DNA of 63,143 nt from the IMG/VR virus record IMGVR_UViG_3300035515_000158. One strand, 5' to 3'. Position numbers and translations under genes: made by a program. Source of the DNA: a virus (Duplodnaviria; Heunggongvirae; Uroviricota; Caudoviricetes). Below, one piece after another: positions 41,771 through 57,058 of the stretch; the first letter of the stretch is position 1; each line of letters begins with the position of its first letter. The notes under the pieces were generated by a model. That model made no database searches, was not told the origin of the DNA, and saw nothing but the letters and a program-made list of their open reading frames with translations.

Positions 41771-41801
41771 ATCTATTATATTTTATTTTTTATTTACATC
41801 A

Positions 41802-41833
41802 CAAAGTTACAATAAATTTTTGAAACTACCAAA
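41802..41833 (-). promoter_or_regulatory. Bacteroidota sigma-A promoter
   Basis: TTTG-N20-TAACTTTG. Confidence 0.8.
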
Positions 41834-41839
41834 TTTTTT

Positions 41840-42403
41840 TCAATTATTTTGATTCATCGCTTCTAAAATTCCACAGATTAAATATACCATCTTGTTAAAT
41901 CCTTCTTCATCAGCATCAACCTCAATGTAATCAATCTTGTCATACTCAGATTCAATTCCTTCCAAATTCAAAATACCCAATATCTTTTTGTCAAGTTCAT
42001 GGGCTTCTTCCTCTGTTTGATTTCTACCATTGGGATTATATGCTTTCTTTCGGTTCAAAAAGAAATTTACATTGTTGGTATCATAACTCATAAATTCTTC
42101 AACAATCGCAGACTTTAAATATTTCTTGTCTGTATAAGCACACCCAATAAGAATAGGTGAATCATTTATAATTACATCAACTTCTCCAAAACAACGACTA
42201 ATCTTAAATGATTGTTTACCAGTGATATACAGTTGATTGTTGAATACCTTCTTATTTTGTTCCCACACTTTATCCTTAGCGAACTCTGATACATACTCAG
42301 CATCAACCCCCATCATTTTAAGACGTGAGAATAGATACGCCGCACAGGTCGATTTTCCTGTACCCGGTCCCCCAAATAAATTAATTATAACTGTGTTCTT
42401 CAT
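41840..42403 (-). CDS. P-loop NTPase, NadR/AAA_28 nucleotide-kinase-like
   Basis: INLFGGPGTGKST, EFAKD, DSP. Confidence 0.8.
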   Translation of the reverse strand: MKNTVIINLFGGPGTGKSTCAAYLFSRLKMMGVDAEYVSEFAKDKVWEQNKKVFNNQLYITGKQSFKISRCFGEVDVIINDSPILIGCAYTDKKYLKSAIVEEFMSYDTNNVNFFLNRKKAYNPNGRNQTEEEAHELDKKILGILNLEGIESEYDKIDYIEVDADEEGFNKMVYLICGILEAMNQNN

Positions 42404-42768
42404 ATTTTTGTAACAAGTGCTTTATATGTGGACATTCCATTAGCCCAACAAAATTTAAAATGGTCTATGTCATCCTTAATCTGTTTTTCAGTATATAGAA
42501 AATAATAAGGATCCTTTTCCTTTTCACTATCACTCATGTTCACACCAAGACGTTTATATACATCTTTCATCCATTCATCAAAACTTCTCCAACGGTCAAA
42601 GTTCTTAACAAATTCTTCATTACTAACTGTGATAAACTCATTTTCATACTCACCAAAACAAAGTTGATAGGTTATTTCATCTTCATCATGGTCAATTAAA
42701 ACAACCTTACAAACTAAAGCATATTGATTCTGAATCCAATAACTTCCGGTTTCAATATTCCAAACCAT
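42400..42768 (-). CDS. Hypothetical protein
   Basis: 122-aa ORF in operon. Confidence 0.6.
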   Translation of the reverse strand: MVWNIETGSYWIQNQYALVCKVVLIDHDEDEITYQLCFGEYENEFITVSNEEFVKNFDRWRSFDEWMKDVYKRLGVNMSDSEKEKDPYYFLYTEKQIKDDIDHFKFCWANGMSTYKALVTKI

Positions 42769-42780
42769 TTTATCTTTATA

Positions 42781-43185
42781 TTAAATTAAACTTCTATACA
42801 TATATTCCATAAAAAGTCCAAACCTACTTCTACGATGAAATTTCGTAATGAATTCTTCTTTAACTAATTCATTAATTTCATTCTCATCTCTGAATTGTTT
42901 CTCCGTCAAAACACCAGCTAAGTGAGGTTTCTTATTTGGTTTGACAGTATAATAATTAATCATACCATCTTCCGCATCTACTATCCAAAACTTAGTTAAC
43001 TCTTTACCATCATTACTGATAACTCCACCTTGTTTTAGATGTTTAACTATTTCATTTATAGTTCTAAAATGAAACTTCTCAAAATGTTCTCGACTAATCT
43101 CAGATTGTTTCTTTTTCTGAGCTTTGTCTTCATCATAAAATTTCTTGATGTTTTCCATCGTTTCTTCTGACATTCTAATTTCCAT
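42781..43185 (-). CDS. Hypothetical protein
   Basis: 134-aa ORF in operon. Confidence 0.6.
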   Translation of the reverse strand: MEIRMSEETMENIKKFYDEDKAQKKKQSEISREHFEKFHFRTINEIVKHLKQGGVISNDGKELTKFWIVDAEDGMINYYTVKPNKKPHLAGVLTEKQFRDENEINELVKEEFITKFHRRSRFGLFMEYMYRSLI

Positions 43186-43432
43186 GTCTAAATTTATCTA
43201 TGTATAACGGCTGATTAAGTTCCTTCTCAATCATCCATGTGGTTCCATCTTTCTCATTAGTTAACCTTTCAACAATGTCAACAATATCAGACAAACGGAG
43301 TCTACTGGTAACTGAACTAAAAGGATTAATGGAACAGAAAACCATGTCCCATTCTTCCTTCCACCCAAGAACTAATCCATATAGACCATCCTTAAATAGA
43401 ACAATATCAAACATCTCAGGTACTAAATCCAT
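43175..43432 (-). CDS. Hypothetical protein
   Basis: 85-aa ORF below TTTGTTATGTTTA motif. Confidence 0.6.
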   Translation of the reverse strand: MDLVPEMFDIVLFKDGLYGLVLGWKEEWDMVFCSINPFSSVTSRLRLSDIVDIVERLTNEKDGTTWMIEKELNQPLYIDKFRHGN

Positions 43433-43522
43433 AAAGAAATAATTTTATAATCTAAACATAACAAAATTGGCCAAGTCATATTTCAAACTTAGCCAATTTA
43501 AATATTAATACTTGTTAAATCT

Positions 43523-44122
43523 TTAAATACTACACACATATAATTCATCATCATTTGTATAAAAACTCATTGATGAATCTGAGCCCGGAGACCATGAACC
43601 AATTTTCAATGAATCATACATCTCATCAATACAGAAAAACATTTTGGTCATCTTATCTAAATCACCTTTATGTTTTTTAATGAAAGTCTTAACATAATTA
43701 AATATCTCCGTATTTAACTGGTCATAAGACTCTGAAATACTATGGTCATCAATACCATATACTGTTAGAACTTTGTAGTCAACATCACTATCTGGTAACT
43801 GACAATTATCATCAATCACATCATTTAGATAGTTCTTAAATAATCCAGTCTCAAAATCTATCTCAAGGGAATAAGAGTAAACTTCATTTTTTAAGGGGTG
43901 TTCGGTGATATAATCTATTATTAGTTGAACAATAGAATGGTGTAAAATTACCCATTCTGAATTCTTTACTTTACTCTTGTTTTCAGTGATGGGCATATCA
44001 TTAATAAAATCATCTTTTCGATTATCTCTCCACCACTTCCTCCCACAAGTTAACTCACTCTGAGACGTTCGTCGCCAACTTTCCTCATGGAAAATGTCGT
44101 AATAATCATCATATGTTTTCAT
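43523..44122 (-). CDS. Hypothetical acidic protein
   Basis: 199-aa ORF. Confidence 0.65.
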   Translation of the reverse strand: MKTYDDYYDIFHEESWRRTSQSELTCGRKWWRDNRKDDFINDMPITENKSKVKNSEWVILHHSIVQLIIDYITEHPLKNEVYSYSLEIDFETGLFKNYLNDVIDDNCQLPDSDVDYKVLTVYGIDDHSISESYDQLNTEIFNYVKTFIKKHKGDLDKMTKMFFCIDEMYDSLKIGSWSPGSDSSMSFYTNDDELYVCSI

Positions 44123-44165
44123 TATATATATTTAAAAGTGTATATCACTACGGGCATTGTCCTGA

Positions 44166-44756
44166 TCAGTAATCATCCGAATCGTCTATTTCATCCAGAT
44201 TGATTTCGTAGTTGTCTTCAAATTCTTCGAGTCGTTTCTTTAATTCATCACTAAATCTACCCTCTCCAAAACTACTCTGGTCGTGACAATGGTCATATAC
44301 ATCAAGGTATATTCTTGCTTTCTCTAACATATACAACGTTTCTTTTAATTTGTCCTTTTCTTCCTGACTATATCTAACATACCAATTTCCATCAGCATAT
44401 ACCATACAATCACTTTCTCTAATCTCATAGTGCATTGGTATAACCTCACCATCAGATGTTGTATATGTTTCATCTCCATGATTTTTATCAACCCACATAT
44501 TGTCACCAGTCCGTTCTAACCACTCAAGACTATTTAACAAATCCTCAGCTTCCTTTCTGGTTTCAAGTTCCTTCAAATCACAAAGATTATATATGTAGTG
44601 AGAAAATTGATAACAATTCTCACCAGTCTTAAACACGATATTAATAAAGTGTTTTTTTACCATATCAGGTATAGTCTGCTCACTTTTCTTAATATCTCTC
44701 TTTAAGGTTTCGATTATTTCATCAAACCTCCATTCAGGTAAATCAAAATATCTCAT
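44166..44756 (-). CDS. Hypothetical protein
   Basis: Start MRYFD gives ATGA overlap with upstream gene. Confidence 0.65.
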   Translation of the reverse strand: MRYFDLPEWRFDEIIETLKRDIKKSEQTIPDMVKKHFINIVFKTGENCYQFSHYIYNLCDLKELETRKEAEDLLNSLEWLERTGDNMWVDKNHGDETYTTSDGEVIPMHYEIRESDCMVYADGNWYVRYSQEEKDKLKETLYMLEKARIYLDVYDHCHDQSSFGEGRFSDELKKRLEEFEDNYEINLDEIDDSDDY

Positions 44757-45169
44757 TTTCTCTTTTCTTTTGTCCAAATTTCACCATCAAAACAAAATAA
44801 AAAATTACTCAGTTCATCATCTTGAACTCTAAGTAAACAACACTCTTTCCCATTAGAAAGTTTATGGTTGAAACAACATTTTTGACAATAATCATAAGGA
44901 TCACCTTTCAATTCACCATCAATGTTAGGATCATATCTTCTAACTCGATATACATGATCCATACAATCCACCATTTCAGTCGTACGATAATGTCCGCTGA
45001 TTGAAGGAATATTATCTCTCAAACAATTAATCTCTACTACTTTCCCATCTTCATCTCGCTTAGTCACTCCATCAAAAAATGAACATCCTTCACAATGACT
45101 CGGCTCAACACCATTTACGGGATAGTATTTACAACTAACATAACTCTTATAAAATACTTCTTTCTTCAT
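44753..45169 (-). CDS. Hypothetical Cys-rich protein
   Basis: CEGCSFF and CQKCCF motifs. Confidence 0.6.
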   Translation of the reverse strand: MKKEVFYKSYVSCKYYPVNGVEPSHCEGCSFFDGVTKRDEDGKVVEINCLRDNIPSISGHYRTTEMVDCMDHVYRVRRYDPNIDGELKGDPYDYCQKCCFNHKLSNGKECCLLRVQDDELSNFLFCFDGEIWTKEKRK

Positions 45170-45171
45170 AA

Positions 45172-45525
45172 TCAAAACCGTTCAAATTTACCACATTTCT
45201 CACATCTATAATAATCATGATGACTGTCACTAAATCTATGTGTAAACTTATGCTCACATTCACCTTGTAAGACTTCTATCTTATCTCCAATCTCTTTTAT
45301 CTCCTTGTCTATATGGTGTAATGTGTAAGCGATATCATTTCGTTGTAGTCTAACTTTATAACTCTCTCCTAACTCATACTCATTAAATAATTCAAGAGCA
45401 ATGTCAAACCTCTTTACTATATCTCTCAATCGTTCAGCTTCCTTTTGTTGTTTTCTCAATCTTTCAACAAGTCCTTTCACTGGCTCCTCTACCATGTCAA
45501 CTTCTAAATCAAAAAACCTATTCAT
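45172..45525 (-). CDS. Hypothetical coiled-coil protein with C-terminal Zn-ribbon
   Basis: CEHKF...RCEKCG. Confidence 0.6.
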   Translation of the reverse strand: MNRFFDLEVDMVEEPVKGLVERLRKQQKEAERLRDIVKRFDIALELFNEYELGESYKVRLQRNDIAYTLHHIDKEIKEIGDKIEVLQGECEHKFTHRFSDSHHDYYRCEKCGKFERF

Positions 45526-45985
45526 TAACGATTTCAAAATTATAATTATTCCAGACTATCTTCCCATCAAATAATAACTTGGACATATAACCCGGATTAT
45601 TCTTAATATTCTCTTTTATCTCATCTTTCAAAATATCATAAGGTGGTTCAGCCAACGGAATTTTTATTATTGTTATCCTGTCTTTTATCACCTTAATGAC
45701 AGCTCGCTTAAATCCATAACCATCATCATTTATCAGGTTATCTAAATCTTCAAATATGGGGATAACACCAAATTCATATAAGTGCTCCATCGTGTATTGC
45801 TCATAATTAATCAGAAATTGGTCATACGTTTCTACATATTTCCTGAACTCCAATTCTTCATCACATACACCTTCTCCCCATCCACAACATTTCTCTATGA
45901 TTTCACTTGGTGTCAATTTAAGTAATCCCTTCGACTCTAATATTAACATTTCGAGTAACACATTCCTTTCTACTTTTCCCATCAC
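45518..45985 (-). CDS. Hypothetical protein
   Basis: 155-aa ORF. Confidence 0.6.
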   Translation of the reverse strand: MMGKVERNVLLEMLILESKGLLKLTPSEIIEKCCGWGEGVCDEELEFRKYVETYDQFLINYEQYTMEHLYEFGVIPIFEDLDNLINDDGYGFKRAVIKVIKDRITIIKIPLAEPPYDILKDEIKENIKNNPGYMSKLLFDGKIVWNNYNFEIVNE

Positions 45986-46075
45986 ATTTTAATAATAACA
46001 AAAATGTGGAGTTAAAATATAGTATCTCCCCCATATTCCAATTCCACATATTATTTTTTTTTCCTTATACTTTAT

Positions 46076-46591
46076 TTATGATTCTACATTTTCGGTTGTT
46101 TCAGTTTTGTTACCACTCTCATCTTTGAATAACTGGTCAAACTTATCCTTGTTCTTAGCCATATATTCTTGCATAGACTTCAACTGCTCATTCGACATAA
46201 CTGAACTAACTACCGCATATGAACCATTATTCAAAGTGAAATCAGACCTCTGCAATAAACTACTGTATCTCAAGGAAGCACACAATACTCCAAATTCAAG
46301 TTCATCTGTCTTCCACTTATTCACAGTTTCATAGACAACCTTCATTCGCTGAGTTCGTTCCTCCTGTGTTTCCAAAGGTGCCTCTTTCTTACACTTACAC
46401 CCTTCTCCACATTGTCCACTACACTCTCCCTTTTCTTCACATTCACATTTCTCTGTTTTCTCAGCTTCATTCAAAGACTCTACTTCACCAGTGTCACCAT
46501 TAGTCACTGCATCTCCACCACAATTTTGGTCTTGTGATAAACTCTCTAAATCAACTTCATTTTCTTTATCAGCTTTCTTCTTTCGTGCCAT
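46076..46591 (-). CDS. Hypothetical protein with Cys-rich patch
   Basis: CECEEKGECSGQCGEGCKC. Confidence 0.65.
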   Translation of the reverse strand: MARKKKADKENEVDLESLSQDQNCGGDAVTNGDTGEVESLNEAEKTEKCECEEKGECSGQCGEGCKCKKEAPLETQEERTQRMKVVYETVNKWKTDELEFGVLCASLRYSSLLQRSDFTLNNGSYAVVSSVMSNEQLKSMQEYMAKNKDKFDQLFKDESGNKTETTENVES

Positions 46592-46604
46592 ATATATCTA
46601 TTTT

Positions 46605-46925
46605 TTAATCTTTATTTTCTCCATTTAATATCGTCGATTTGTAATTCTTAACCCTGTAATAATCAAACAAACCAACCATAGTTCCTGAATATTGTTCCAT
46701 CAACTTCTTCACATTCCCAGCTCGTGCAGTTAATACTTCATGGGGATGTTCTTCATCAATCTCCAATATTACATAACCATTTCCATAGTCCTCACCTTTC
46801 TGCTCAAACTCATTATTTATCCGCTTCTTCTCATCTTGTAAGAACTCTATAATATACTCAAGTATCTCAACAAAAGTATATTTCTCTAATACTAAATCTA
46901 ACTTAATTTTGTCTATATCTTCCAT
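46605..46925 (-). CDS. Hypothetical protein
   Basis: About 106 aa. Confidence 0.6.
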   Translation of the reverse strand: MEDIDKIKLDLVLEKYTFVEILEYIIEFLQDEKKRINNEFEQKGEDYGNGYVILEIDEEHPHEVLTARAGNVKKLMEQYSGTMVGLFDYYRVKNYKSTILNGENKD

Positions 46926-47154
46926 CAAAATAAAACATTATCATAAACATTAATATCATCCACCAGAAAAAGAAACAAACACAAAAATCACCACATAAAT
47001 CTTGTAACCAATCTACATAACGACCAGCATCTACCTCATCTCCATACCTATATCTCTCAGCAAAGTCCATGAAAAACTTAACATGCTTCTCATACCTCCC
47101 CCTCAAAAATACTCCAATTACACCAAGCAAATATATAATAACAAAATATATCAT
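46903..47154 (-). CDS. Small membrane protein (two hydrophobic segments)
   Basis: MIYFVIIYLLGVIGVFL and FCVCFFFWWMILMFMIMFYF; ATGA overlap at 47151-47154. Confidence 0.55.
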   Translation of the reverse strand: MIYFVIIYLLGVIGVFLRGRYEKHVKFFMDFAERYRYGDEVDAGRYVDWLQDLCGDFCVCFFFWWMILMFMIMFYFDGRYRQN

Positions 47155-47282
47155 ACCGCTACCATTAATAAACAAATGAACATGATTACTAAAAATAAAG
47201 TAAATACATAATCAAATCCTAAAGAAATATACCATCCAAGAAATTTCCAGTATAGTGATTTTATCTTATCTATTATCTTCAT
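47151..47282 (-). CDS. Small membrane peptide (43 aa)
   Basis: Read by hand: MKIIDKIKSLYWKFLGWYISLGFDYVFTLFLVIMFICLLMVAV; promoter-like motif at 47302. Confidence 0.5.
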   Translation of the reverse strand: MKIIDKIKSLYWKFLGWYISLGFDYVFTLFLVIMFICLLMVAV

Positions 47283-47317
47283 ATCTTTTTTAACTTTACT
47301 CTAAATATAACAAATAA

Positions 47318-48049
47318 TTAACTCTTAACCACCGTTTCACATATTTCTTTCTGTATCTCTTCTTCTTCCTTTATATATGTGAAATACTTACCTGTCTGAA
47401 TATAAATGTATATCTTCCCATTTACATACCTATCTATTCCCATCACATATACATCATTCTTAGCCATCAATAACGGTATCACATTATGAACAATACACAA
47501 AAAATATACCCCATACTGCTCATGCAACTTGTTCATCATATTCACTACCCCAACAGTCCATTCTAACGATAATCCCTTGTCTATCTCATCAAAGATAATC
47601 AAAGTCTTGTCATTAAATTTGTCCCTGTTGTCCACTAACCATTTCCCTATCAAATTTAACTCACTCTCCCCATTACTCTTGTGCCGATTCATATATCCAC
47701 CATACTCTACATAACTCTCAGCACTCGCACAATTATTCAAACTCTTAGTGTCATCAAATTCACTCGATAAGAAATATATCTTCTCAAAATCCGTCTCTAC
47801 TTCCGACCTCCCCTCAAAATCATCAGAAAACAAATCTCCATAACCTAACTTCGCTCCCCAACCACTCCTGTCCTCTCCTTCATTATCACACTGACGAACT
47901 CGAACACAATTTATCAACGTACTCTTTCCACACCCATTCTTTCCAGTAATATATATGAAAGGCTCACTCTTCCCTTCAAAATCAAACTCATACTCAGTTC
48001 CACCTTTCAATACTCGCAAATCTTCCTTTATCTTTATCTTTATCTTCAT
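47318..48049 (-). CDS. ABC-type ATPase (stand-alone)
   Basis: GKNGCGKST, signature-like SNGE, LIIFDEIDKGL, H-loop VHN. Confidence 0.75.
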   Translation of the reverse strand: MKIKIKIKEDLRVLKGGTEYEFDFEGKSEPFIYITGKNGCGKSTLINCVRVRQCDNEGEDRSGWGAKLGYGDLFSDDFEGRSEVETDFEKIYFLSSEFDDTKSLNNCASAESYVEYGGYMNRHKSNGESELNLIGKWLVDNRDKFNDKTLIIFDEIDKGLSLEWTVGVVNMMNKLHEQYGVYFLCIVHNVIPLLMAKNDVYVMGIDRYVNGKIYIYIQTGKYFTYIKEEEEIQKEICETVVKS

Positions 48050-48792
48050 CTCTTTTTCCTTTTTTTATTATTCGTTACATCTTCTATGAATACCTCAAAC
48101 CAATCCTTACTGATATTACTTAAAGGATATCCTCCAATCCTTCCTCTCGGCTTGTATTCTACCCCAGCCTCTCGATACCACTTGTAATTTATTGATATGT
48201 GACTGTCATACTTTACCCGGTCACAATATTTCTTCAATAACTTCTTATAAGTACGTATATCTACTAATATCCATCCTCCACTCTCAGCCAATATCTCACT
48301 CCGCTTCGCTACTTCAACAAAATGACACCATATATTTCCACTATACTTAAATGTCCTCGGCTCATTCTCTATTACCCAACTACTCTCAACATACGACTTC
48401 CCCATCTCCCATCCTAATGTTTGTGTATCTTCATCTAAACAAAACCTACTAACATCATATGGATCTATCCCCTTAAATAACTTCTTATACTTTCCTCGCC
48501 ATTCCTTGTGATACTGATTCTTCTCATCAAACCACTCATAAAATAAATCAACTTGTCGTATCTTTAACTTCTTCCCATTCTCATCTTTCAGAAACTTCCG
48601 TCGACCATTCACAATATTTCCACTCCCAACTCCACCTAATAAAAAACTCTCTACAAAACCATGAGGAAAAGCATAAATACCCCACTCAACAGGGGCACTA
48701 TGAAATCCTGTACCATACTCCTTATGATACTGCGGAATCAAATTTCCCCACCTCTTAAATTCCACCTCTAATTTTTTCACAACTTTCTTCAT
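48046..48792 (-). CDS. Hypothetical protein
   Basis: 248-aa ORF. Confidence 0.6.
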   Translation of the reverse strand: MKKVVKKLEVEFKRWGNLIPQYHKEYGTGFHSAPVEWGIYAFPHGFVESFLLGGVGSGNIVNGRRKFLKDENGKKLKIRQVDLFYEWFDEKNQYHKEWRGKYKKLFKGIDPYDVSRFCLDEDTQTLGWEMGKSYVESSWVIENEPRTFKYSGNIWCHFVEVAKRSEILAESGGWILVDIRTYKKLLKKYCDRVKYDSHISINYKWYREAGVEYKPRGRIGGYPLSNISKDWFEVFIEDVTNNKKRKKR

Positions 48793-49411
48793 CTACTCTT
48801 GCGTTCTTTACTTGGCCTATTTCATCCCATTTCTTTACTATAATACAATCACTACATATTCCCTTTAAGTATAAGTCATCATCAGTCATCATTTCTATTG
48901 CGACAACCTCTCCATTTAACCCTATATCTACTCTATGTAATTTATTGACATTATATTCAAATACCAAATCTCCAACCTCTATCAATTCTCCTTTCCTATC
49001 TCTACATCCAGTGTCTCCACCTAAATGCCCTCCTATTATACTTCGCCAATCACTATTCATGTGTTCCCTATACTCAGCTAAATCAGGACATTCAGTATAT
49101 TCCCTATCTCGTTGCCCATATCCCCAATCATAAAAATTACCCCCATAATAACTGTATAAAACAATTACAGTATAGGGTGCATTCTTACAGTAATATTCAT
49201 ACCCTGACATATTACCATAACTATCTTCATAACTCTCATTATCTTTATTATATTTGACATCTGTTTCTTCTTTCCAATTCATATCTAATATCCTAAGAAA
49301 ATGCTTGTCAAATTCTAAAAAATCAAAACAACGAGGATCTAATTCACTCAAAACATCCCTTACTTCCTTCAAGATGTTTTCCTTCCTTAAATCAAAATAA
49401 AATCTATTCAT
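48755..49411 (-). CDS. Hypothetical protein, C-terminus YopX-like
   Basis: TGCRDRKGELIEVGDLV resembles the YopX motif. Confidence 0.5.
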   Translation of the reverse strand: MNRFYFDLRKENILKEVRDVLSELDPRCFDFLEFDKHFLRILDMNWKEETDVKYNKDNESYEDSYGNMSGYEYYCKNAPYTVIVLYSYYGGNFYDWGYGQRDREYTECPDLAEYREHMNSDWRSIIGGHLGGDTGCRDRKGELIEVGDLVFEYNVNKLHRVDIGLNGEVVAIEMMTDDDLYLKGICSDCIIVKKWDEIGQVKNARVDEESCEKIRGGI

Positions 49412-49429: not shown

Positions 49430-50150
49430 ACGGACATCCCCTCACTTTTTTCAACCCATTTTTTTATTCCCACATTATTTTTTAACATTTCTGTAATATT
49501 AATGTAAAATTATGTCTTTTTTATCTATATATTTTATTATTGAATTTTTTTGTAATCTATTTATACTGAGCTAATTAAATTCAAAAATATATACCCAATT
49601 TTTTAACTCAATTTTGTCAGATTTGTTTCAATTTATTTTTAATTTATTTTAATTTGTTTCAATTTATTTTTAATTTACTGAGCCAAGATCTAGCCTTCTT
49701 TGATTGATTCTGAATACCCCCTAAAAAACCCTAATTTTAGCTAATTTTACCCCCTTCCCAAAATAGGCCAAAAATACCCCAAAATTAGCGTTTTTTACAT
49801 ATCCTAAAAATACCCCAAAATTAGCTTATTTTACCCCCTCAGAAATTAGCTCATTTTACCCCTTTGAAAAACCACCCCTCCAACTCAGGACAGACCGGAA
49901 ATGTAGTTTTCACAGATTTCCACAGATTTCCAAGAATTCCAAAAAAGTGTAAAATATGGTAAAAAAGGGGAATAAAATAAGCTAAGTAAAAAAGAGGTAA
50001 AAAGTGTAAAAATAGGTAAAAAGTAAGAAAGGGGAAAAACATGGAAAATAGTGAAAAAATGTGTCTTAAAATTAGCTAAGTAAAAAAGAGGTAAAAATGG
50101 GAAAAATCGTAAAATCGTTCGTATAGTAAAATAGGTAAATGTGAGGAAAT
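49430..50150. other. Putative replication-origin core: AT-rich tract plus direct and inverted short repeats at a GC-skew switch
   Basis: 26-bp AT repeat x2 (49621, 49652); 20-bp repeat x2 (49770, 49806); TTTTACC x3 left versus GGTAAAA x4 right; CACAGATTTC x2 (49911-49930); 24-bp repeat x2 (49980, 50074). Confidence 0.5.
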
Positions 50151-50159
50151 AGGGTTAAT

Positions 50160-52540
50160 ATGTATCTGGGGGTTATTTACTGGGCTGAGGAATCTGGTAT
50201 CTGGAAGTCTGGGGTGTATATCTGGGGGTTAATATATCCGGTATGGTAGATATGGGGGTGGATGAGTAGTAGTTTCGTCATTCGTATCGTGAGGGAAAGG
50301 GAGAGGAATGGTAAAGAGGGTTAAGTTGAGGAAGGGGGATGGACAGTTATATGGGTTGAGTTCTGGTCAGCTGAGTCTGGGGACTGGGTTAAGATGACAA
50401 AATGAAAGTAAAAGAGGGGATTTACTTACATGCTTATAAAAAATCCCCAGAGTTTTTCTTCAGGAGGTGACAAAATGAAAGTAAAAATAGGGATATAGTA
50501 ACAAAATGTCAAATGGGATAGTAGTTTCGTTTATCGTATCGTGATGAGATATGGGTTCTTGGTTAGCTGAGTTCTTGGACAGTGGTATGAAATTTGATGA
50601 AGGGGATGTGATGAGTTTGGTGATATTGGACTGAGCTGCGGGAATGAGATAAATCAGGAACAGGGGGACTTGGGTGGAGAACAGGGAGTAGAAAAGATAA
50701 TCTGAGTCGGGGAAGGGGAATGGACAGAAGTGGGTTTAGTAGTTTCGTCTATCGTAGTTCGTGTTAATCAGTGGGATGAGATTTGATGAGGTTCGAGTCA
50801 GTGAAGGAGGAATGGACAGTCGGTTCTGGGGACTTGGGTTGAGTTCTGGTCAGCTGAGTCTGGGACAACGGGATGAGATTTGAGAGAGATGAGACTCCGG
50901 AGATGGAATGAGTAGAGAAGTCTTGGGTTGGTGGTGTAAACTTGGGGACATTGGACTGTGCTGTGGAAATGAAATGATGACCGGGGTGGAATTAGGGAAT
51001 GGGGAATCCTGTTGTGGTGTGCTGGACAATATTAGGAACAGGGGACTGAGGTGGGGAACAGGGAGTAGAAAAGATGATATGAGTCGGGGAATGGGAATAG
51101 AAAGAAGAAAGAAGTCTTGGTTCTTGGGTTTCGTTATTCGTATCGTGGTGGAAATAGAATGGACAGTGAGATGAGATTTGATGAAGGGTGGTTTCTTGGA
51201 CAGCTGAGTCGGAGAAGGGGAATGGTGTGGAATCTGGAAAACTGGAATCCTGTTGTGGTGTGTTGGACAATATCAGGAACAGGGAAGTTGGATTGGAGGT
51301 AATGTGAGCTGAGTCGGAGAAGGAGGAATGGACAGTCGAGATGAGTAGATTAGATTTGGGTTTCGTCTATCGTTATTCGTGTTAGTCAGTGGGATGAGAT
51401 TTGATGAGGTTCGAGTCAGTGAAGGGGAATGGTCAGTTGGTTTTGGATACTTGGGTGGAGTCTGGACATCGGGATGAGGAATGAAGATGGGTTCTGGATA
51501 CCGTTAGATTTAGTGAGCTTGGTTCTGGGGTTGAGGTATATTTGGTCAGCTGAGTCTGGTTAGTAGAGATGAGTAGATGTCTTGGTTTAGTAGTTTCGTT
51601 ATTCGTATCGTGATGAGATGAGGGTAGTCAGTGATATGAGATTTGATGGAGGTGGGTTCTGGTTCTGGATACTTGGTCAGGTTGAGTCTGGGAATGGTGA
51701 CTGGTGTGGAAGATGAAGTCCTGAGATGGAATCCTGTTATGGTGTGTTGGACAATATTAGGAACAGGGGACTAAGATGAGAACAGGGAGTAGAAAAGATA
51801 ATCTGAGTCGGAGAAGGGGAATGGACAACGAGATGAGATTTGGGTTTCGTTATTCGTGTCGTGTTGGTCAGTGGTATGAGATTTGATGAAGGGTGGAGTT
51901 CTTGGTCAGTTGAGTCTGGTTTGGATTAGAGATGGAATGAGTAGAGAAGTCTTGGGTTAAGTTATCGTTTCTCGTAGTTCGTGTGGAGATTGACTGAGAT
52001 GAGGAATGAAGATGGGTTCTGGATACTTGGGTTGAGTTCTGGTCCGCTGAGTCTGGTTGGGAATAGATGTCTTGGATTGGTGTGTAAACTTGGGGACTTG
52101 GACTGGGTTGAGGAAGATGGGTTCTGGATAACTTGGAGGAATGAAGTTTGGGTGGAATCTGGAAAACTGGAATCCTGTGGAGATGTGCTGGACAATATCA
52201 GGAACAGGGAAGTGGGATTGGGAACAGGGAAGTAAAGTGGGCTGAGTCCGGTTAGTAGTAATGAGTAGACGACTTGGGTTTAGGTTTCGTCATTCGTATC
52301 GTGATGAGATGAGGGTTAAGTTGGAGAAGGGGAATGGACATTTGGTTCTGGATACTTGGGTGGAGTCTGGGAACAACGGGATGAGATTTGATGAAGGGGT
52401 GGAATGATCCTGGAACTGTTGAGGTATCCGGGATGAGGAATGAAGATGGGTTCTGGTTCTGGGAGCTTGGGTTATCTGGGGTCATCCTGTTTCTGGTGAG
52501 CTGAGTCTGGGGACTGAGATGGAAAACAGGGAGGGTTGAA
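50160..52540 (+). repeat. G-rich, C-poor non-coding array of shuffled 15-40 bp modules
   Basis: Recurrent GTTTCGTnnTTCGTATCGTG, CAGCTGAGTCTGG, GATGAGATTTGATGA, GGAGAAGGGGAATGGACAG, GAATCCTGTT..GGACAATATYAGGAACAGGG. Confidence 0.9.
50395..50511 (+). repeat. 117-bp direct repeat, copy 1
   Basis: 14 mismatches, no gaps, against 52542-52658. Confidence 0.95.
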
Positions 52541-52541
52541 A

Positions 52542-52658
52542 TGACAAAATGAAAGTAAAATGAGGGTTTTACTTACACACATAAGAAAAATCCCCTGAGT
52601 TTTTCTTCAGGAGGTGTCAAAATGAAAGTAAAAATCAGGAAATAGTAACAAAATGTCA
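52542..52658 (+). repeat. 117-bp direct repeat, copy 2
   Basis: TGACA...TGTCA ends; internal TG(A/T)CAAAATGAAAGTAAAA x2. Confidence 0.95.
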
Positions 52659-52663
52659 GAATA

Positions 52664-52703
52664 CAAAAAAAAACAATCCCTCAGAAGAAATCCAAGGGAT
52701 TGT
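52664..52703 (-). terminator. Intrinsic terminator ending the early-region transcript before the array
   Basis: ACAATCCCT/AGGGATTGT stem followed on the minus strand by a T run. Confidence 0.75.
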
Positions 52704-52865: not shown

Positions 52866-53321
52866 CTAAAGGTTGATGGTCAGGTTTTCGATGTTGATAT
52901 TAATCGTGATGCCTGAATTAGTTTCCGTTTCATTACATGCGTCTGTTTCCGGGGTTAGATTTACTGTATCGTCGGTAGAAGCAGAAGTAGTAATAGGGGA
53001 TGGTTTGAACAGTATGCAGTCATCGAGAGATACTAAACCATTTTCATATAGAGTCTGTTCGAGTTTTTTGAATTTATCCTTGGCGTAGAAGTTAACCAAG
53101 AACGGGTCGAACAGTCTGAATTGATTATAATTGAGGGTGTCATTATATGTGAACCCAAACTTATCGAGGAAGACACATTCATAAAGGAATAGGTATCCTC
53201 CTTTATATCTTTTAGTGACAACATTCATGATTTTTCCATGTTCGCCTTTCGTATTCGTAATGATGAGGTCGAATTGTTTAGGTGTGTTTGAGAAATCAGA
53301 TGTCGTAGAAGCTGTTTCCAT
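52866..53321 (-). CDS. Hypothetical protein
   Basis: 151-aa ORF. Confidence 0.55.
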   Translation of the reverse strand: METASTTSDFSNTPKQFDLIITNTKGEHGKIMNVVTKRYKGGYLFLYECVFLDKFGFTYNDTLNYNQFRLFDPFLVNFYAKDKFKKLEQTLYENGLVSLDDCILFKPSPITTSASTDDTVNLTPETDACNETETNSGITININIENLTINL

Positions 53322-53583
53322 TTAGTTTATATTTTATTTCAGATGTACAACAAGGACAACGATATGTGAAAAATTGATAAAGAGGTTGGTTAGGTACCTT
53401 GGCTGATGTTAGACAAGGAGAAGAAGTACCTTTAAATCTATTCCTTGGGCCGGACAGACATTCATCATAACAGTCATGTAATTCCATATCGCTACCACAG
53501 ATTGGACATGATTTGATATCGTATGGATAGAACTTGTGACCATTTACCTCTACGAGTGATGGAGAGATATCAATGTTTTCCAT
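53296..53583 (-). CDS. Small Zn-ribbon protein
   Basis: CPICG...CPCC. Confidence 0.6.
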   Translation of the reverse strand: MENIDISPSLVEVNGHKFYPYDIKSCPICGSDMELHDCYDECLSGPRNRFKGTSSPCLTSAKVPNQPLYQFFTYRCPCCTSEIKYKLNGNSFYDI

Positions 53584-53594
53584 ATCACTGAAAG

Positions 53595-53957
53595 TTAACT
53601 GTTGGACAGAGGGATGTTATTGTCGAGAAGATAACGGATGCAGTTAAAGACAACATCAACGAAATCCAGACCGTTACATTTTTGGAAGTCGGCGTCAGTG
53701 GTTTTTGGATCACTGTAATCCACATAACCTTCATAAATTTGTTCCCAATTCGGTCCGGAAGAAATACTGATTCCGTTGTGTAATTCCATCAGGGCGGAAA
53801 GAGACCAAGCGGGAATATCATCAGGTCCCATTGAGTAATCCTGTTTAGCCAAGAGATATTTACCTGTTACTGAGTAGAACATATCAGCAGTTTCAACAGG
53901 GACATCTTTAGATAGGAGAAACTCAGATTGTTGAATTGAGGTAGCTATTTTATTCAT
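53595..53957 (-). CDS. Hypothetical protein, paralog of 58507-58980
   Basis: TSIQQS..LL....ETAD...PAWSLSALM. Confidence 0.65.
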   Translation of the reverse strand: MNKIATSIQQSEFLLSKDVPVETADMFYSVTGKYLLAKQDYSMGPDDIPAWSLSALMELHNGISISSGPNWEQIYEGYVDYSDPKTTDADFQKCNGLDFVDVVFNCIRYLLDNNIPLSNS

Positions 53958-53959
53958 GA

Positions 53960-54304
53960 TTATTTCTTTTTTGAGCGATTATTTTTCGTAACGACTTCTT
54001 GTTCAAAATAGGGGTCATACCAGTTAAGGATACCGCCATCTTCATTGATTAGATAAACCCAGTAACCTTCTTCGAGTGGATTACCTTTGTTGTCTCTGGA
54101 TTCGCCACTGATCCACCGAGCTTCAATTATTTCTACTGTTTTACCAGCGAAGTCGGAGTAAGGAGGATACCATAGTTCATCTTCTTCATCAGGGTCACAG
54201 ATAATCAGAGGTTCATCATATCCGGGGCAAACTTTAGAGAGAGATGATAGGTCTTTGACTTTTACTTTGTCACCTACCTTGAAGTGGTTATTTGTTCTGT
54301 CCAT
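53960..54304 (-). CDS. Hypothetical protein with KOW/SH3-like domain shared with the paralog family
   Basis: FKVGDKVKVK...FAGKTVEI...YLINEDGG. Confidence 0.6.
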   Translation of the reverse strand: MDRTNNHFKVGDKVKVKDLSSLSKVCPGYDEPLIICDPDEEDELWYPPYSDFAGKTVEIIEARWISGESRDNKGNPLEEGYWVYLINEDGGILNWYDPYFEQEVVTKNNRSKKK

Positions 54305-54339
54305 TGTTTATTTTTTTAGACGATTTTCGTGACGATTAT

Positions 54340-54495
54340 TTACGGAAGAGTTCCACTTTGGTTGTTCCATTTTCGAGGGGGAGTCTCAACAACCTCAAAG
54401 TCGGTATATACATTGTCATTGATTTTGACATTACCGTTGATGATATGTTGATTATAAGCGGCCATCATTGAAAGACCTAAGAACATGCGTTTCAT
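54340..54495 (-). CDS. Small early peptide (51 aa, MKRMFLGLSMM...)
   Basis: Read by hand; sits directly under the duplicated promoter/5'UTR module. Confidence 0.5.
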   Translation of the reverse strand: MKRMFLGLSMMAAYNQHIINGNVKINDNVYTDFEVVETPPRKWNNQSGTLP

Positions 54496-54541
54496 TGTTT
54501 TTTGTTTTTTAGAGAGTTAAACTTGTTTTCTTTTTACATTA

Positions 54542-54573
54542 CAAAGATACTTGATTTTTTTGACTTGACCAAA
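54542..54573 (-). promoter_or_regulatory. Bacteroidota sigma-A promoter
   Basis: TTTG-N20-TATCTTTG. Confidence 0.8.
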
Positions 54574-54625
54574 TTTTAAGTGCTAAAAATTTGTTAAATC
54601 TTTTTTCAATCATCTTTTCAATGTT

Positions 54626-54928
54626 CTACTTTTTATCAGCTATGTCTTCAAGCAACATAGAGGGGAGTATCATGTCCTCATTAATTTCAATCACATTATC
54701 ATCTTTTTTATCAGCTATGTCTTCAAGCAACATAGAGGGGAGTATCATGTCCTCATTAATTTCAATCACATTATCATCTTTTTTATCAGCTATGTCTTCA
54801 AGCAACATAGAGGGGAGTATATTGTCATAATTGGGTTCAATATTTTCGATTTCACGTGCAAGGTCGCGAAGTATCTTGTCATAACCAATATTGTTATTTA
54901 CTTTGTTGCGTTTAGTTGTTTTTTTCAT
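54626..54928 (-). CDS. Early protein with 25-aa tandem repeat
   Basis: ILPSMLLEDIADKKDDNVIEINEDM x2.5; same promoter/UTR module upstream. Confidence 0.6.
   Translation of the reverse strand: MKKTTKRNKVNNNIGYDKILRDLAREIENIEPNYDNILPSMLLEDIADKKDDNVIEINEDMILPSMLLEDIADKKDDNVIEINEDMILPSMLLEDIADKK
54629..54820. repeat. 75-bp perfect tandem repeat, about 2.5 copies
   Basis: ttttatcagctatgtc at 54631, 54706, 54781. Confidence 0.95.
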
Positions 54929-54973
54929 TGTTTTTGTTTTTTAGAGAGTTAAACTTGTTTTCTTTTTACATTA

Positions 54974-55005
54974 CAAAGATACAAGTTTTTCTCAACATCT
55001 CCAAA
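54974..55005 (-). promoter_or_regulatory. Bacteroidota sigma-A promoter
   Basis: TTTG-N20-TATCTTTG. Confidence 0.8.
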
Positions 55006-55062
55006 TAAAAACCGCTAAATAATGCTAACAATATCTGATTACTGAATTACGATTTATTTTCG

Positions 55063-55812
55063 TCAATATTTCAAATGTCGTTCTGTGGTATCTTCATGAC
55101 CAATCGCTGGATGTTTCATGAAGTAGAATAGTGATTGACAGGCCGACTCATATACTCTGAAATAGTTACCGATTTTATACTGGTTCTCATCAAAGTCATC
55201 ACCATAGTCATTCTTAGCGACCACATTGCCTATTTCATTTACATAGAAATAAACACCATAACGTTGAGCCCTCCAAGGAATAGGATTAAAGTCATTCCAA
55301 TCTCTTTTATGTTTAGAGGGGAATAACATGATTTCACCATCCTCATCAAACGTGCCATCTTTATGAAGTATCAGGTCGTTATTGATATAGTATTTGTTTT
55401 TCTGGATTGTTTCTTCTCCGGGTAGTTTTGGTTTTCTCAGGAATATGAAATCACCATACATACTATCCACAATTACATCACCAATCATCGGACAGTAGAA
55501 GACTTGATTTTCTTCACATTTACCAAGGATTTGAATTAGGTCGAGGATAGGGGTTTCAGTTCCATCTAAATTAACGAGAGCTGAGAAACAACCGGAAGTC
55601 CAGACGTTGTTATCTTCCTCAATGGTAAAATAAGTTGAGTCTATTTTATCTTTAATGGTCACGATTTGGTCACAGAAATTACTCATGTCTTCTTTGAAAT
55701 AGAAGGGGAGTTCAATCTTACCTATCGAGATTTGTTTGGTGTTTGTATCTCTGTTCTCTAAATACCACTGTTGAGATTTGACCCTTACTTTATCACCTAC
55801 ATTTAATTTCAT
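55063..55812 (-). CDS. Paralog family member (KOW-like + GExxLFPS + YFYV..G..NYF domains)
   Basis: MKLNVGDKVRVKSQQWY...GEIMLFPSKHKRDW...YFYVNEIG...NYF. Confidence 0.7.
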   Translation of the reverse strand: MKLNVGDKVRVKSQQWYLENRDTNTKQISIGKIELPFYFKEDMSNFCDQIVTIKDKIDSTYFTIEEDNNVWTSGCFSALVNLDGTETPILDLIQILGKCEENQVFYCPMIGDVIVDSMYGDFIFLRKPKLPGEETIQKNKYYINNDLILHKDGTFDEDGEIMLFPSKHKRDWNDFNPIPWRAQRYGVYFYVNEIGNVVAKNDYGDDFDENQYKIGNYFRVYESACQSLFYFMKHPAIGHEDTTERHLKY

Positions 55813-55863
55813 ACGATTATTTGATTGTTAAAAAATTTGGAGAATTGAATTTTATTTACTCTA

Positions 55864-55895
55864 CAAATGTACAAGAAAAAATTCAATTCTCCAAA
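55864..55895 (-). promoter_or_regulatory. Bacteroidota sigma-A promoter inside a 20-bp inverted repeat
   Basis: TTTG-N20-TACATTTG. Confidence 0.75.
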
Positions 55896-55939
55896 TTAGA
55901 CATGCAAAATATGTTTAAAAATTCATTCAGTAAGTTCTA

Positions 55940-57058
55940 TTAATTTCGTGCGAATGAAATCGTTTTTCCCATGAGGTGGTCTTTAGGTGATTGATAAAAT
56001 TCTCCATGTTCGACATCAACAATACATACATCAGTTTTCATGTCTACATAGTTCACCTTAGAGTAGTCATATTTGTCACCATAGATTTCCTTGGCTATGT
56101 TAATGAAATACTCTTGACTTATTTTACGATCTCGCTCAGCTTGGATGGGGTTTTCATTTGACTGTTTCTCGTCGAAGTCTTTCTCAGCGTTATTGATGAA
56201 CCTTTTGATTGCTCGGTTTGATACTGATTGTCCAGTGTAACCATTCAAGTGGTGTCGCGGGGTTGACCAGAACGCACCATTCTCCGGACAGATGATACAT
56301 ACCTTGGTGTTTGAATTTACATAGTTCACCTTAGAGTAGTCGAATTTGTCACCATGAATTTCTTTGGCTCGGCGAATAAACTCATCCTGTGTCAGTTTGT
56401 GTTTCTCGGTTTGGCACACAGCACAACCTTTTCCAGTGAGGTGGTCTTTAGGTGTCTGATAAAATTCACCATGTTTCGGGCAGATGATACATACCTTCGA
56501 CATTGCGTTTACGTACTCGGTTTTAGAATAGTCATACTTTTTACCATGCAGTCGTCGGGCCTTTTCAATGAACTTATCGGTTGTCATTTGGTGTTTATTA
56601 TACCAACAGTCTGGACAGCCAAGTCCTTTCAAGTGATTTATCGGGCTCATCCAGAACTCACCATGTTCAGGACAGATGATACATACCTTAGTTCTTGAAT
56701 TTACATACTCTACCAAGGAATAGTCATACTTGTCACCATGTACTTGTCGAGCTTGGTCAATGAACTTAGCGGTTGTCATCTTGTCAGCGAAACGAGGTCG
56801 GGATTTGTCCATTTCCAACTCGGTCTTGCGAATAAACTCAGCGTGTTCCTTTTGGTTGTCGAGGTTGATATGATTTTCTCGACATGCTGGACAACCAAGT
56901 CCTTCCAAGTGGTTCTGAGGTGTCATCCAAAATTCACCATGTTTCGGACAGATGATACATACTTTAGTTTTAGTGTTTACAAAATTGACTTTAGAATAGT
57001 CATACTTGTCACCATGTACTGCTTGTGCAGATTCAATGAAATTTGTCATTGTACTCAT
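55940..57058 (-). CDS. Five-repeat DUF723-like zinc-binding protein without a nuclease domain
   Basis: F...A..VHGDKYDYS...Y.N..TKVCIICP.HGEF...P..HL.G.GC..C x5, last two missing some Cys ligands. Confidence 0.75.
   Translation of the reverse strand: MSTMTNFIESAQAVHGDKYDYSKVNFVNTKTKVCIICPKHGEFWMTPQNHLEGLGCPACRENHINLDNQKEHAEFIRKTELEMDKSRPRFADKMTTAKFIDQARQVHGDKYDYSLVEYVNSRTKVCIICPEHGEFWMSPINHLKGLGCPDCWYNKHQMTTDKFIEKARRLHGKKYDYSKTEYVNAMSKVCIICPKHGEFYQTPKDHLTGKGCAVCQTEKHKLTQDEFIRRAKEIHGDKFDYSKVNYVNSNTKVCIICPENGAFWSTPRHHLNGYTGQSVSNRAIKRFINNAEKDFDEKQSNENPIQAERDRKISQEYFINIAKEIYGDKYDYSKVNYVDMKTDVCIVDVEHGEFYQSPKDHLMGKTISFARN

Follow-up and report, generated by a model that had tools for sequence, protein, structure and literature searches.

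A dispensable G-rich array of decayed direct repeats lies beside an origin-like centre of mirror-image strand bias in a rumen phage genome

What is the 2.4-kb G-rich stretch that separates two gene blocks in the genome of a rumen phage of roughly 350 kb, and is its odd composition its own? The window analysed here is the whole available stretch of 63,143 nucleotides, in which the array region occupies positions 50160-52660. Its + strand counts 893 G, 230 C, 670 A and 708 T (G about 36-37%, C 9%, GC 45%, purines 62%). The resulting GC skew of +0.59 compares with a mean of 0.05 (sd 0.15, maximum 0.32) for the 1-kb segments of the window lying outside 41-57.5 kb. The original prediction of a G-rich, C-poor and non-coding + strand was confirmed by these values, down to the 23 G and 2 C counted at 51061-51120, and by the presence of at least 18 stop codons per frame on both strands. 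The + strand frames each contain 7-10 TAA, 11-15 TAG and 28-45 TGA, and the minus-strand frames 6-16 TAA plus 6-11 TGA. Since each + strand frame carries all three stop codons, no single stop reassignment opens any of them, and no ORF was found under any genetic code in any frame of either strand. The region is not an assembly artefact, its sequence being 100% identical across contigs of six JGI samples. No DNA homology to the array was detected in 50,697 phage records or in the 462-kb phage LR756500.1, and searches of IMG/VR and metagenome contigs with the array module patterns returned chance single matches only. Seven animal-gut metatranscriptome runs contain at most 25% of the words sampled from 47500-54500, this interval being taken as a whole.

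The array had been described as a set of recurring modules in changing order, neither a simple tandem repeat nor a CRISPR. All the named modules are present and in place, including nine copies of a TCGT triad and CCTGTT...AACAGG hairpins at 51008, 51249, 51733 and 52174. Their changing order was not upheld: when the array is cut at the triads, the nine resulting units align collinearly in a single order, once numerous deletions and a few sub-repeats within units are allowed for. Self-alignments with gaps, 150-340 nt long and 67-82% identical, are offset by about 232 nt or a multiple of it; every repeat is direct and none is inverted. In all, about 10 direct copies of a single unit, now decayed, make up the array, and the order within the unit does not change. 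TRF found no short-period repeat in it and missed the tandem repeat because the copies fall below 75% likeness. The earlier description thus stands for TRF output and for CRISPR, which was rejected because there is no repeat-spacer pattern but only degenerate long direct repeats; it does not stand for the array itself, which is a degenerate tandem repeat. In arrays of this kind, the indels of decaying tandem repeats can give a false impression of 'module shuffling'.

The first G-rich unit (50160..50385, +) carries a triad at 50275 and the motif CAGCTGAGTCTGG at 50368. It is followed by T1 (50386..50511, +), the left copy of a 126-nt direct repeat, with a GACAAAATGAAAGTAAAA duplication and a weak terminator-like hairpin. 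The main array (50512..52532, +) comprises eight degenerate direct units of 118-386 nt, opened by triads at 50527, 50745, 51131, 51363, 51596, 51847, 51965 and 52287; the 386-nt unit may conceal a copy whose triad was lost. T2 (52533..52658, +) is the right copy of the 126-nt repeat, with a minus-strand terminator-like hairpin at 52613-52592. Beyond it lies a strong intrinsic terminator (52673..52703, minus strand), a 13-bp stem and a T run with a folding energy of -18.5 kcal/mol (z = -4.5), at which the upstream minus-strand operon ends. T1 and T2 (repeat family D7) are 87% identical and bracket the main array. A mobile element nature of these 126-nt modules was considered and rejected: they are the duplicated ends of an amplified segment whose units are homologous to the resident first unit.

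The triad is the one element of the unit that has resisted decay. It has the form TCGT-N3-TCGT-N1/3-TCGT, with words spaced 0/7/12 or 0/7/14. All three TCGT words are identical in each of the nine units, while their ungapped flanks are only 30-47% identical, and 14 of the 17 invariant columns of the unit alignment fall in the triad; as the units were defined by the triads, part of this invariance reflects ascertainment. A tenth triad lies outside the array at 50107..50124 (+), at the edge of the proposed centre described below, and is the apparent founder of the unit-opening motif. The ten triads are all on the + strand, 118-386 bp apart. Base conservation among copies otherwise follows the order G > T > A > C, C being lowest at 82%, and no special conservation of C was found among the repeat copies. 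Because G and T are the best kept bases, the array, triad excepted, appears to evolve under a regional pressure and not under module-specific constraint.

A natural variant bears on the importance of the array. In a sister strain (three assemblies), whose left flank is 98.5% identical, the 2.1-kb main array is missing; JGI samples 3300043081 and 3300035500 carry this strain. The sister strain keeps the first G-rich unit and the strong terminator together with one T module, which is a T1/T2 hybrid. This is a clean loss of the main array by recombination between the flanking repeats. Absence from a near-identical strain implies that the main array is not an essential replication platform. Since T1 and T2 differ by 13% whereas the strains differ by 1.5%, the array predates the separation of the strains and was retained. 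It is old but dispensable.

C-poverty had been taken as a property of the array. We found instead that it extends into the flanking genes, and that the odd composition of the array belongs to a wider, mirror-image strand bias. At silent sites, the strand running outward from a hub at about 49.9 kb is enriched in G irrespective of gene direction, for about 8 kb to the left and 4-6 kb to the right, and this bias has faded out at around 41 and 57 kb. The left arm (41000..49411, minus strand) is an operon in which the coding strand steadily gains G and loses C as the hub is approached. Its G3-C3 skew, 0.07 at 41.5 kb, has reached 0.8 by 48.4 kb, the + strand skew of four-fold sites at 44-49 kb reaches -0.4 to -1.0, and 57% of NNR codons end in G near the hub vs 33% far from it. 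In the right arm (52866..56500) the genes are also on the minus strand, and it is the antisense (+) strand that is G-enriched at silent sites. There, four-fold sites have a + strand skew between +0.25 and +0.64 at 53-56 kb, dropping to about 0 past 57 kb, four-fold C is 0.24 vs 0.15, and NNR codons are G-ending at 17% vs 36%. The array values (G.37, C.09) are close to those at third positions of the two most skewed genes of the neighbouring operon (G3.32-.34, C3.04-.06); four-fold sites of the near-left genes have G.21 and C.04.

The bias flips within the hub itself (49715..50140), where six TTAGCTAA-type palindromic sites are found, four to the left within C-run repeats and two to the right. 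Within the window this motif occurs only at the hub (4 matches vs 0.16 expected). The right half also carries GGTAAAA A-tracts phased at about 10 nt, and repeat families D3 and D20 and the inverted pair I3 fall within the hub. Immediately to the left, and 0.4-0.7 kb left of the triad array, composition and TRF define an AT-rich tract with short tandem repeats (49440..49700, about 20% GC), a candidate unwinding element. SNP density between the two strains is modestly higher in the hub, an uninformative difference. No convincing polar oligomer of the Chi or KOPS kind is common to both arms. Among 68 polarised recent substitutions of the left arm, no strand asymmetry per site was detected, and the value is only 1.5 SE from that of a mutation-driven equilibrium; if upheld with more data, this lack of asymmetry would favour selection over a mutational footprint of opening.

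The flip is conserved in relatives. A syntenic phage with 35-65% amino-acid identity (L019) shows the same skew flip, the same G gradient in the operon syntenic to the left arm, an equivalent hub with TAGGCCTA-core palindromes and a similar ATCGT-N-TCGT motif in the same relative place as the hub-proximal triad. In LR756500.1 the flip occurs twice, once beside ten 18-bp iterons; at the other flip, the left-hand genes lie on the C-rich strand. The equivalent spacer is only 0.4-1 kb in relatives. The skew flip was absent from three ATPase relatives (L016, L017 and L020). Scans of IMG/VR and metagenome contigs with the flank proteins gave nothing useful apart from one distant locus (L051), where the skew feature is absent.

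From these observations we propose, with a probability of about 0.4, that the array is accessory cis-acting DNA, a reiteration of hub-proximal TCGT sites on the rightward arm of an origin-like opening centre. The array would have arisen, in this lineage only, through tandem amplification of the first G-rich unit, just to the right of a centre at about 49.9 kb made up of the palindromic protein sites, the phased A-tracts and the AT-rich tract. DNA would be opened repeatedly at this centre and copied outward, and the strand running 5'->3' away from it would have become rich in G and poor in C to the left and right of it, within genes as well as spacers. The array would inherit this regional composition and add nine further triad copies in the same orientation, about 230 bp apart, which may serve as reiterated binding or priming sites modulating the centre in the manner of an iteron control array. 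That the centre is a replication origin is suggested by the minus to plus polarity of the skew at the hub, which matches that of an origin. Active T4 origins lie at points of transcriptional divergence that coincide with compositional shifts, and T4 oriE carries iterons (PMC3016281). Against the origin reading, a 646-aa candidate protein is without Pfam match and no initiator gene was identified beside the hub. The triad, a putative site for a protein or a primase, shares with the sites of iteron origins a direct repetition in one orientation and strict conservation (ten triads, TCGT words 100% conserved). Classical iterons are 17-22 bp long and closely packed, unlike the triads with their spacing of about 230 bp, and the helically phased spacing of about 20-22 bp next to an AT-rich element was not found. 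Any effect of the array on firing would be modulatory at most and could be nil, since the sister strain manages without the main array.

The same locus might instead act through RNA. A long untranslated + strand transcript could arise in the hub, or in every unit separately, from a middle-type promoter that escaped recognition. Hybridised to its template as an R-loop, it would prime or license replication toward the right, much as at T4 oriF/oriG or herpesvirus oriLyt. This transcript could also bind proteins as an unstructured RNA, and its C-poverty would make it a poor Rho substrate. We consider this explanation doubtful. In its favour, a + strand RNA:DNA hybrid is clearly preferred over the duplex in the array and nowhere else in the window (-0.118 kcal/mol per step with nearest-neighbour parameters, compared to about 0 for the other strand of the array and +0.01 to +0.07 for the rest of the window). 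The phage is T4-like in its CATAAATA late promoters and its UvsW helicase, the latter borne out in the window by Pfam matches to ResIII, Helicase_C and UvsW_N; UvsW is the R-loop helicase of T4, where its role has been described (PMC3016281). Repetition of the hub-edge motif in each unit also means that each could hold its own start site. Several results oppose it. As originally noted, no promoter facing the array was recognised; both the host type (TTTG-N19-21-TAnnTTTG) and the late type (CATAAATA) were looked for, and each turns up readily in other parts of the window. R-loop initiation motifs are at chance, with 6 matches vs 5.8 +/- 1.8 in shuffles for G3N1-10G3N1-10G3 and 3 vs 3.5 for G4N1-10G4, and G3+ runs are not in excess either (86 vs 77.8 +/- 4.7). 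T1, if it is a + strand terminator at all, would halt a hub-derived transcript before the main array, and the silent-site bias of the right flank, where genes run in the opposite direction, would require kilobases of antisense read-through. Given that the main array is also dispensable, the R-loop platform proposed originally retains the hub beside a sharp skew flip, the UvsW gene and the hybrid preference, and loses the initiation motifs and the need for the array. The G-quadruplex part of that proposal failed: one canonical motif (G3+N1-7 x4) occurs in 2.4 kb vs 1.0 +/- 0.9 in dinucleotide shuffles, and two-tetrad motifs are not in excess (23 vs 20.3 +/- 2.9). Likeness to switch regions holds for + strand composition and not for short pentamer structure of the GAGCT/GGGGT type, which is absent. 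Nor is there support for a structured or CsrB-type sponge RNA, GGA not being enriched (123 vs 111.7 +/- 6.8). RNAalifold predicts 0 conserved pairs over the nine units, folding is no more stable than by chance (MFE z = +0.37), the four weak CCTGTT/AACAGG stems are the only recurrent hairpins of the array, and Rfam gives 0 matches to it at gathering score and 0 at E<=1; large structured ncRNAs such as GOLLD, ROOL or OLE are thus unsupported, with neither Rfam match nor conserved fold.

A simpler view, which we judge unlikely, is that of a neutral satellite produced by slippage and unequal recombination in an often single-stranded non-coding spot, with copies decayed under the regional bias and no function of their own. 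The traceless loss of the array in the sister strain, the decay of the copies, which are 65-82% alike and carry many indels, a conservation order that follows the regional bias and the short spacer of relatives are all as expected from it. It accounts poorly for nine perfect triads out of nine amid diverged neighbours, though C is otherwise the most depleted and least conserved base, for retention of the array since before the T1/T2 divergence and for its identity in six samples. The minus strand, for its part, could insulate: with 36% C and 9% G over 2.4 kb, a rut-like composition for a minus-strand transcript only, read-through RNA would offer an ideal Rho loading zone, backed up by the minus-strand hairpins of T2 and T1, and so protect the hub and the next operon. 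The strong terminator and the terminator-like site in T2 fit such a role, which is nonetheless very unlikely as this terminator already stands upstream, the sister strain keeps nothing more than it and one T module, and neither the triads and direct-repeat organisation nor the bias of the flanking genes would be explained. Guide-RNA, antitoxin or coding arrays (CRISPR, VIPR vrRNAs, ToxI-like repeats, a gene in another code) have as sole support that this is a purine-rich repeat array in a phage, and can be set aside with near certainty. VIPR vrRNAs are RNAs of about 100 nt with 9-16 YNNGG repeats plus a conserved tail, characterised by adjacent vipr (RAMP-like) and vap genes (PMC13142463). Here, no run of at least three GGYNN repeats and no lag-5 GGY autocorrelation were detected, so that a VIPR array was rejected, and no PHROG match pointed to a vipr/vap-type function among the neighbouring proteins. 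Type III antitoxin repeats measure 34-45 nt, far short of the unit length of about 230 nt here, and the array is not followed by a toxin gene; the stop codons counted above oppose a coding role and the absence of a repeat-spacer pattern a CRISPR.

Returning to the reading as accessory DNA beside an origin-like centre, a bolder version of it has, in our opinion, a small chance of being right. The hub, its two G-rich arms and the triad array might represent, in huge Bacteroidota phages, a type of origin not described so far, where synthesis would proceed outward for kilobases before opposite-strand priming, in a strand-displacement or R-loop zone comparable to those of mitochondria and RSF1010, leaving an extreme local skew 'volcano'. 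Priming or loading would then take place at the few C-containing words conserved on the displaced strand, namely the TCGT triads and the GCT/GTC of CAGCTGAGTC, and the array would be a tunable set of such sites. If the hub is an origin, it would provide a sequence-level marker of replication start and direction in huge, uncultivated rumen phages, and the natural pair of array-plus and array-minus strains allows a direct test of origin-flanking repeats. Over about 12-14 kb of genes in all, amino-acid content is also altered by this steep local mirror skew. For annotation, the G-rich spacer and the C-poor gene block should be treated as a single phenomenon, and the spacer should not be labelled as a CRISPR-like, guide-RNA or G-quadruplex element.

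The locus can be compared with several known systems. Like replication origins marked by a GC-skew sign change, those of T4 included, it shows a minus to plus skew change at a non-coding, repeat-bearing, AT-rich centre, in a phage with UvsW and a T4-like late promoter; T4 oriE too has a direct-repeat cluster of unproven role (PMC3016281). Unlike the skew at such origins, the bias is here extreme (0.6-0.8 at silent sites), local and not replichore-wide, and overrides gene direction on one side. Immunoglobulin switch regions and CpG-island promoters, where GC skew accompanies R-loops (PMC3787257), share with it degenerate repeats whose non-template strand is G-rich on the kilobase scale, skew mirrored on the two sides of a divergent centre and a thermodynamic preference for the RNA:DNA hybrid. 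They differ from the present array, which has no pentamer repeats or G-clusters above chance and no detected promoter, and lies in a bacterial phage. In herpesvirus oriLyt, the repeat regions are transcribed and needed for origin function, and the G-rich repeat transcripts (EBV BHLF1, HCMV RNA4.9) form RNA:DNA hybrids. The resemblance lies in a repeat-built G-rich region of about 2.5 kb beside a viral lytic origin with divergent control elements, the origin being putative here; the array differs in being dispensable and in having no recognised promoter. In vertebrate mitochondrial DNA, strand displacement generates skew gradients in which silent-site bias grades with distance from the origin. 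Here too, genes of either direction are affected and amino-acid use is reshaped, though over kilobases around one point of a 350-kb genome, and the base shifts include a gain of G from both T and A, which is not a pure deamination signature. Finally, the iteron control arrays of plasmids and phage-plasmids, such as P1 incA and R6K, have sites about 20 bp apart. The sites of our array are about 230 bp apart, no Rep gene was identified and each unit drags along about 200 nt of decaying spacer; as in these control arrays, it is built of same-orientation copies of a short, strictly conserved site beside an origin-like core, varies in copy number and can be dispensed with.

The array, a gene-free stretch at 50160-52660, contains 36% G on its + strand, against 9% C (GC skew +0.59, GC 45%, purines 62%); outside 41-57.5 kb, skew in 1-kb windows averages 0.05 (sd 0.15, maximum 0.32). 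The 23 G and 2 C counted in the original prediction for 51061-51120 were confirmed, and its listed modules were all found in place. As it also held, the array is non-coding: stops occur in every frame of both strands (7-10 TAA, 11-15 TAG and 28-45 TGA per + strand frame; 6-16 TAA and 6-11 TGA per minus-strand frame) and, since all frames carry several kinds of stop, none is opened by reassigning one of them. ARAGORN and Rfam (gathering score or E<=1) gave no match in the array region, and a guide RNA or coding function is scarcely credible. The array sequence is 100% identical across contigs of six JGI samples, one of 351,598 bp, and is therefore not the assembly artefact that had been envisaged. 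What was observed is real, and its description is revised in part here. Contig ends of several independent assemblies cluster at 49143-49344 and 50706 (starts at ~49.1-49.3 kb for L047, L048, L049 and L015; end at 50706 for L014), the AT-rich tract and the array being hard for short-read assemblers.

Each unit of the array opens with a triad of TCGT words; ten such triads were found between 50107 and 52287, all on the + strand. Cut at these triads and aligned (alignment A1), nine units proved collinear, in one order and not as modules in changing order, with many deletions and a few internal sub-repeats as differences. The triad is followed by a GATGAGATTTGATGA block, a GAAGGGGAATGGACAG block, a GGTTCTGG...CAGCTGAGTCTGG block and an optional long insert, then by a CCTGTT...AACAGG hairpin, a GAACAGGGAGTAGAAAAG...CTGAGTCGG block, a second GGGGAATGGACAG block and GAGTAGA...TTGGGTT. 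Gapped self-alignments span 150-340 nt at 67-82% identity, with offsets that are multiples of ~232 nt; all 33 self-matches are direct, none is inverted, and another copy covers 87% of the array. It is thus a decayed direct tandem repeat, with copies too diverged for TRF. A 126-nt direct repeat flanks the main array (50512-52532), as T1 on the left (50386-50511) and T2 on the right (52533-52658), the two being 87% identical. Each T module carries a mini-ORF of 7 codons (50472-50509, MKVKIGI; 52619-52656, MKVKIRK) with AGGAGG 7 nt upstream and a common stop codon position; AGGAGG and mini-ORF are probably incidental, the host rarely using Shine-Dalgarno sites.

A homologue (97%) of the 151-aa protein encoded in the right flank led us to an array-minus sister strain, L172, which is 98.5% identical to the window over 43001-50511 and 95.5% over 52491-54435. 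Its inter-operon gap is 1.2 kb, compared to 3.45 kb in the window strain, and retains the hub (the repeat-rich zone at ~49.9 kb), the first unit and a single T module. In this module all left diagnostic sites are those of T1 and all right ones those of T2, the crossover falling within 10 nt common to both; the hybrid junction recurs in three assemblies made independently, from two JGI samples and one Logan run. Since T1 and T2 differ by 13% and the two strains by 1.5%, the duplication predates the strain split, and recombination between T1 and T2 removed 2,147 bp from L172. The main array is thus old and retained in one lineage, yet not needed for viability. The two strains offer a useful natural array-plus/array-minus pair. 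They also differ by an indel or replacement of ~0.5 kb at 54435-54964, in the right-flank gene block.

The G-rich composition is regional and not specific to the array. In the left minus-strand operon, coding-strand G3-C3 skew is 0.07 at 41.5 kb and climbs to 0.8 at 48.4 kb, whereas in the right genes (52.9-56 kb, also minus strand) G is enriched on the antisense (+) strand instead, with + strand skew at four-fold sites of +0.25 to +0.64, falling to ~0 beyond 57 kb. Two-fold codons concur: G-ending NNR codons amount to 57% near the hub and 33% far away on the left, and to 17% and 36%, respectively, on the right. Amino-acid use tracks the bias, with more Gly and less Ala, Thr and Pro. These opposite silent-site skews make the bias a mirror image about 49.9 kb, the G-rich strand running 5'->3' outward on both sides; it fades over ~8 kb to the left and 4-6 kb to the right, independently of gene direction. 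Array composition (G.37, C.09) is close to that of third positions in the two most skewed genes (G3.32-.34, C3.04-.06) and of four-fold sites in near-left genes (G.21, C.04). Among repeat copies, G is conserved at 90%, T at 87%, A at 84% and C at 82%; the array and its surroundings drift under a common pressure. Per-site rates of 68 polarised substitutions were symmetric, a sample of low power for separating mutation from selection. At silent sites G increases at the cost of both A and T, and the shift is therefore not a pure deamination signature.

A neutral satellite, drifting and dispensable, would fit these data, and we consider it unlikely in view of the triads. All three TCGT words are identical in 9/9 units, with spacing 0/7/12 or 0/7/14; ungapped 20-nt flanks are 30-47% identical, and invariant A1 columns inside the triad number 14/17. 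Elsewhere in the array no base is as depleted or as poorly conserved as C, so the triad is the one array feature that looks selected, although part of its invariance is ascertainment, the units being defined by their triads. Three further triads lie outside the array, at 58095-58112 (+), 40498 and 57505; that at 58095 (TCGTAATTCGTATCGT) is near-identical to the array consensus, yet within a minus-strand coding region.

The centre of this mirror image (49440-50140) combines a tract of 20% GC, six TTAGCTAA-type palindromes that the rest of the window lacks (extended motif: 4 matches, 0.16 expected), GGTAAAA A-tracts phased at ~10 nt and the first TCGT triad. Promoter-like elements in the hub are -7-like boxes only, all leftward. 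Minus-strand promoters of host type (TTTG-N19-21-TAnnTTTG, with -33 TTTG and -7 TAnnTTTG; extended form TTTGG-N-AAAAA-N-TGTAnCTTTG) precede seven genes, at 20473, 38826, 41833, 54573, 55005, 55895 and 62069; the extended Bacteroidota-type form points to a Bacteroidota host and a gene class read by the host polymerase. Late-type CATAAATA promoters, like those of T4 but with C, not T, at the first position, lie 20-40 nt upstream of start codons of + strand structural genes and a few others (+: 2445, 3161, 9583, 22330, 24784, 27584, 30331; minus: 20515, 27603, 30306, 46073). Neither type faces the array, in agreement with the proposed lack of a recognised + strand promoter driving it.

We favour, with a probability of about 0.4, an accessory cis-acting DNA forming the rightward arm of an origin-like opening centre. 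A hub-proximal unit would have been tandemly amplified, reiterating the TCGT site along this arm, and G-richness would be the regional footprint, or a requirement, of the centre. The switch-region, G4 and sponge readings of the original prediction are mostly unsupported: one G4 motif was found (1.0 +/- 0.9 in shuffles), and G-runs are likewise at expectation, as is GGA with 123 occurrences (111.7 +/- 6.8 in shuffles). An R-loop-forming + strand transcript is doubtful, though it ranks next. With nearest-neighbour parameters, a + strand RNA:DNA hybrid over the array has an advantage of 0.118 kcal/mol per step and the array is the only clearly hybrid-favourable region in the window, making R-loops plausible if the + strand is transcribed; initiation motifs are at shuffle expectation. 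RNAalifold returned zero shared pairs for the nine units, an 851-nt array piece is no more stably folded than its shuffles (z = +0.37) and the four hairpin modules reach only z = -1.1 to -1.8. The array has neither a period-5 signal nor a GGYNN run and so falls outside VIPR vrRNA arrays as PMC13142463 defines them. At the end of the operon to the right stands a strong terminator on the minus strand (52703-52673, z = -4.5); that the array itself is a minus-strand Rho/terminator insulator is improbable.

Elsewhere in the window, a minus-strand cluster (37165-40299) comprises a DUF2828/DUF7788 vWA protein (which some phage records label RNA-binding), a DHH/DHHA1 phosphoesterase and a phage-encoded SmpB. 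Conserved in the syntenic Logan contig L019, it is a possible RNA or ribosome-rescue module. The 646-aa protein beside uvsW (20518-22458, minus) had no Pfam match at E<=0.001. An HNH/DUF723 endonuclease gene (55940-57064, minus) has strong internal DNA repeats, with many 70-85% self-matches in blastn against L172.

The source is a huge phage, and its UvsW is closest (43.6%) to that of LR756500.1, a 462-kb uncultured phage. L019 has an orthologous operon (35-65% amino-acid identity), where skew jumps to +0.6 at the operon start and decays over ~8 kb, as in the window; its hub carries TAGGCCTA-core palindromes and, at the edge, a TCGT-rich motif, and its G-rich spacer is only ~400 nt, with three CCTGTT/AACAGG-type hairpins. 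LR756500.1 has no DNA homologous to the array and no homologous flank genes. It shows two skew flips, one at the record junction, adjoining ten tandem 18-bp iterons (461880-462018) and then a ~1 kb G-rich spacer (1-1000), the other at 11.1 kb, where the left-hand genes contain almost no G although they lie on the + strand. The spacer includes a 45-nt inverted repeat. Near the second flip, two GGCGGACCGGTTTG direct repeats enclose a repeat stretch of 200 nt that is free of C (11400-11650), a miniature of the direct repeat/C-poor repeats/direct repeat layout.

Skew polarity at the hub matches that of origins in general. It also fits the T4 pattern, in which active origins coincide with points of divergence and compositional shift, and oriE carries direct repeats whose role is unknown (PMC3016281).
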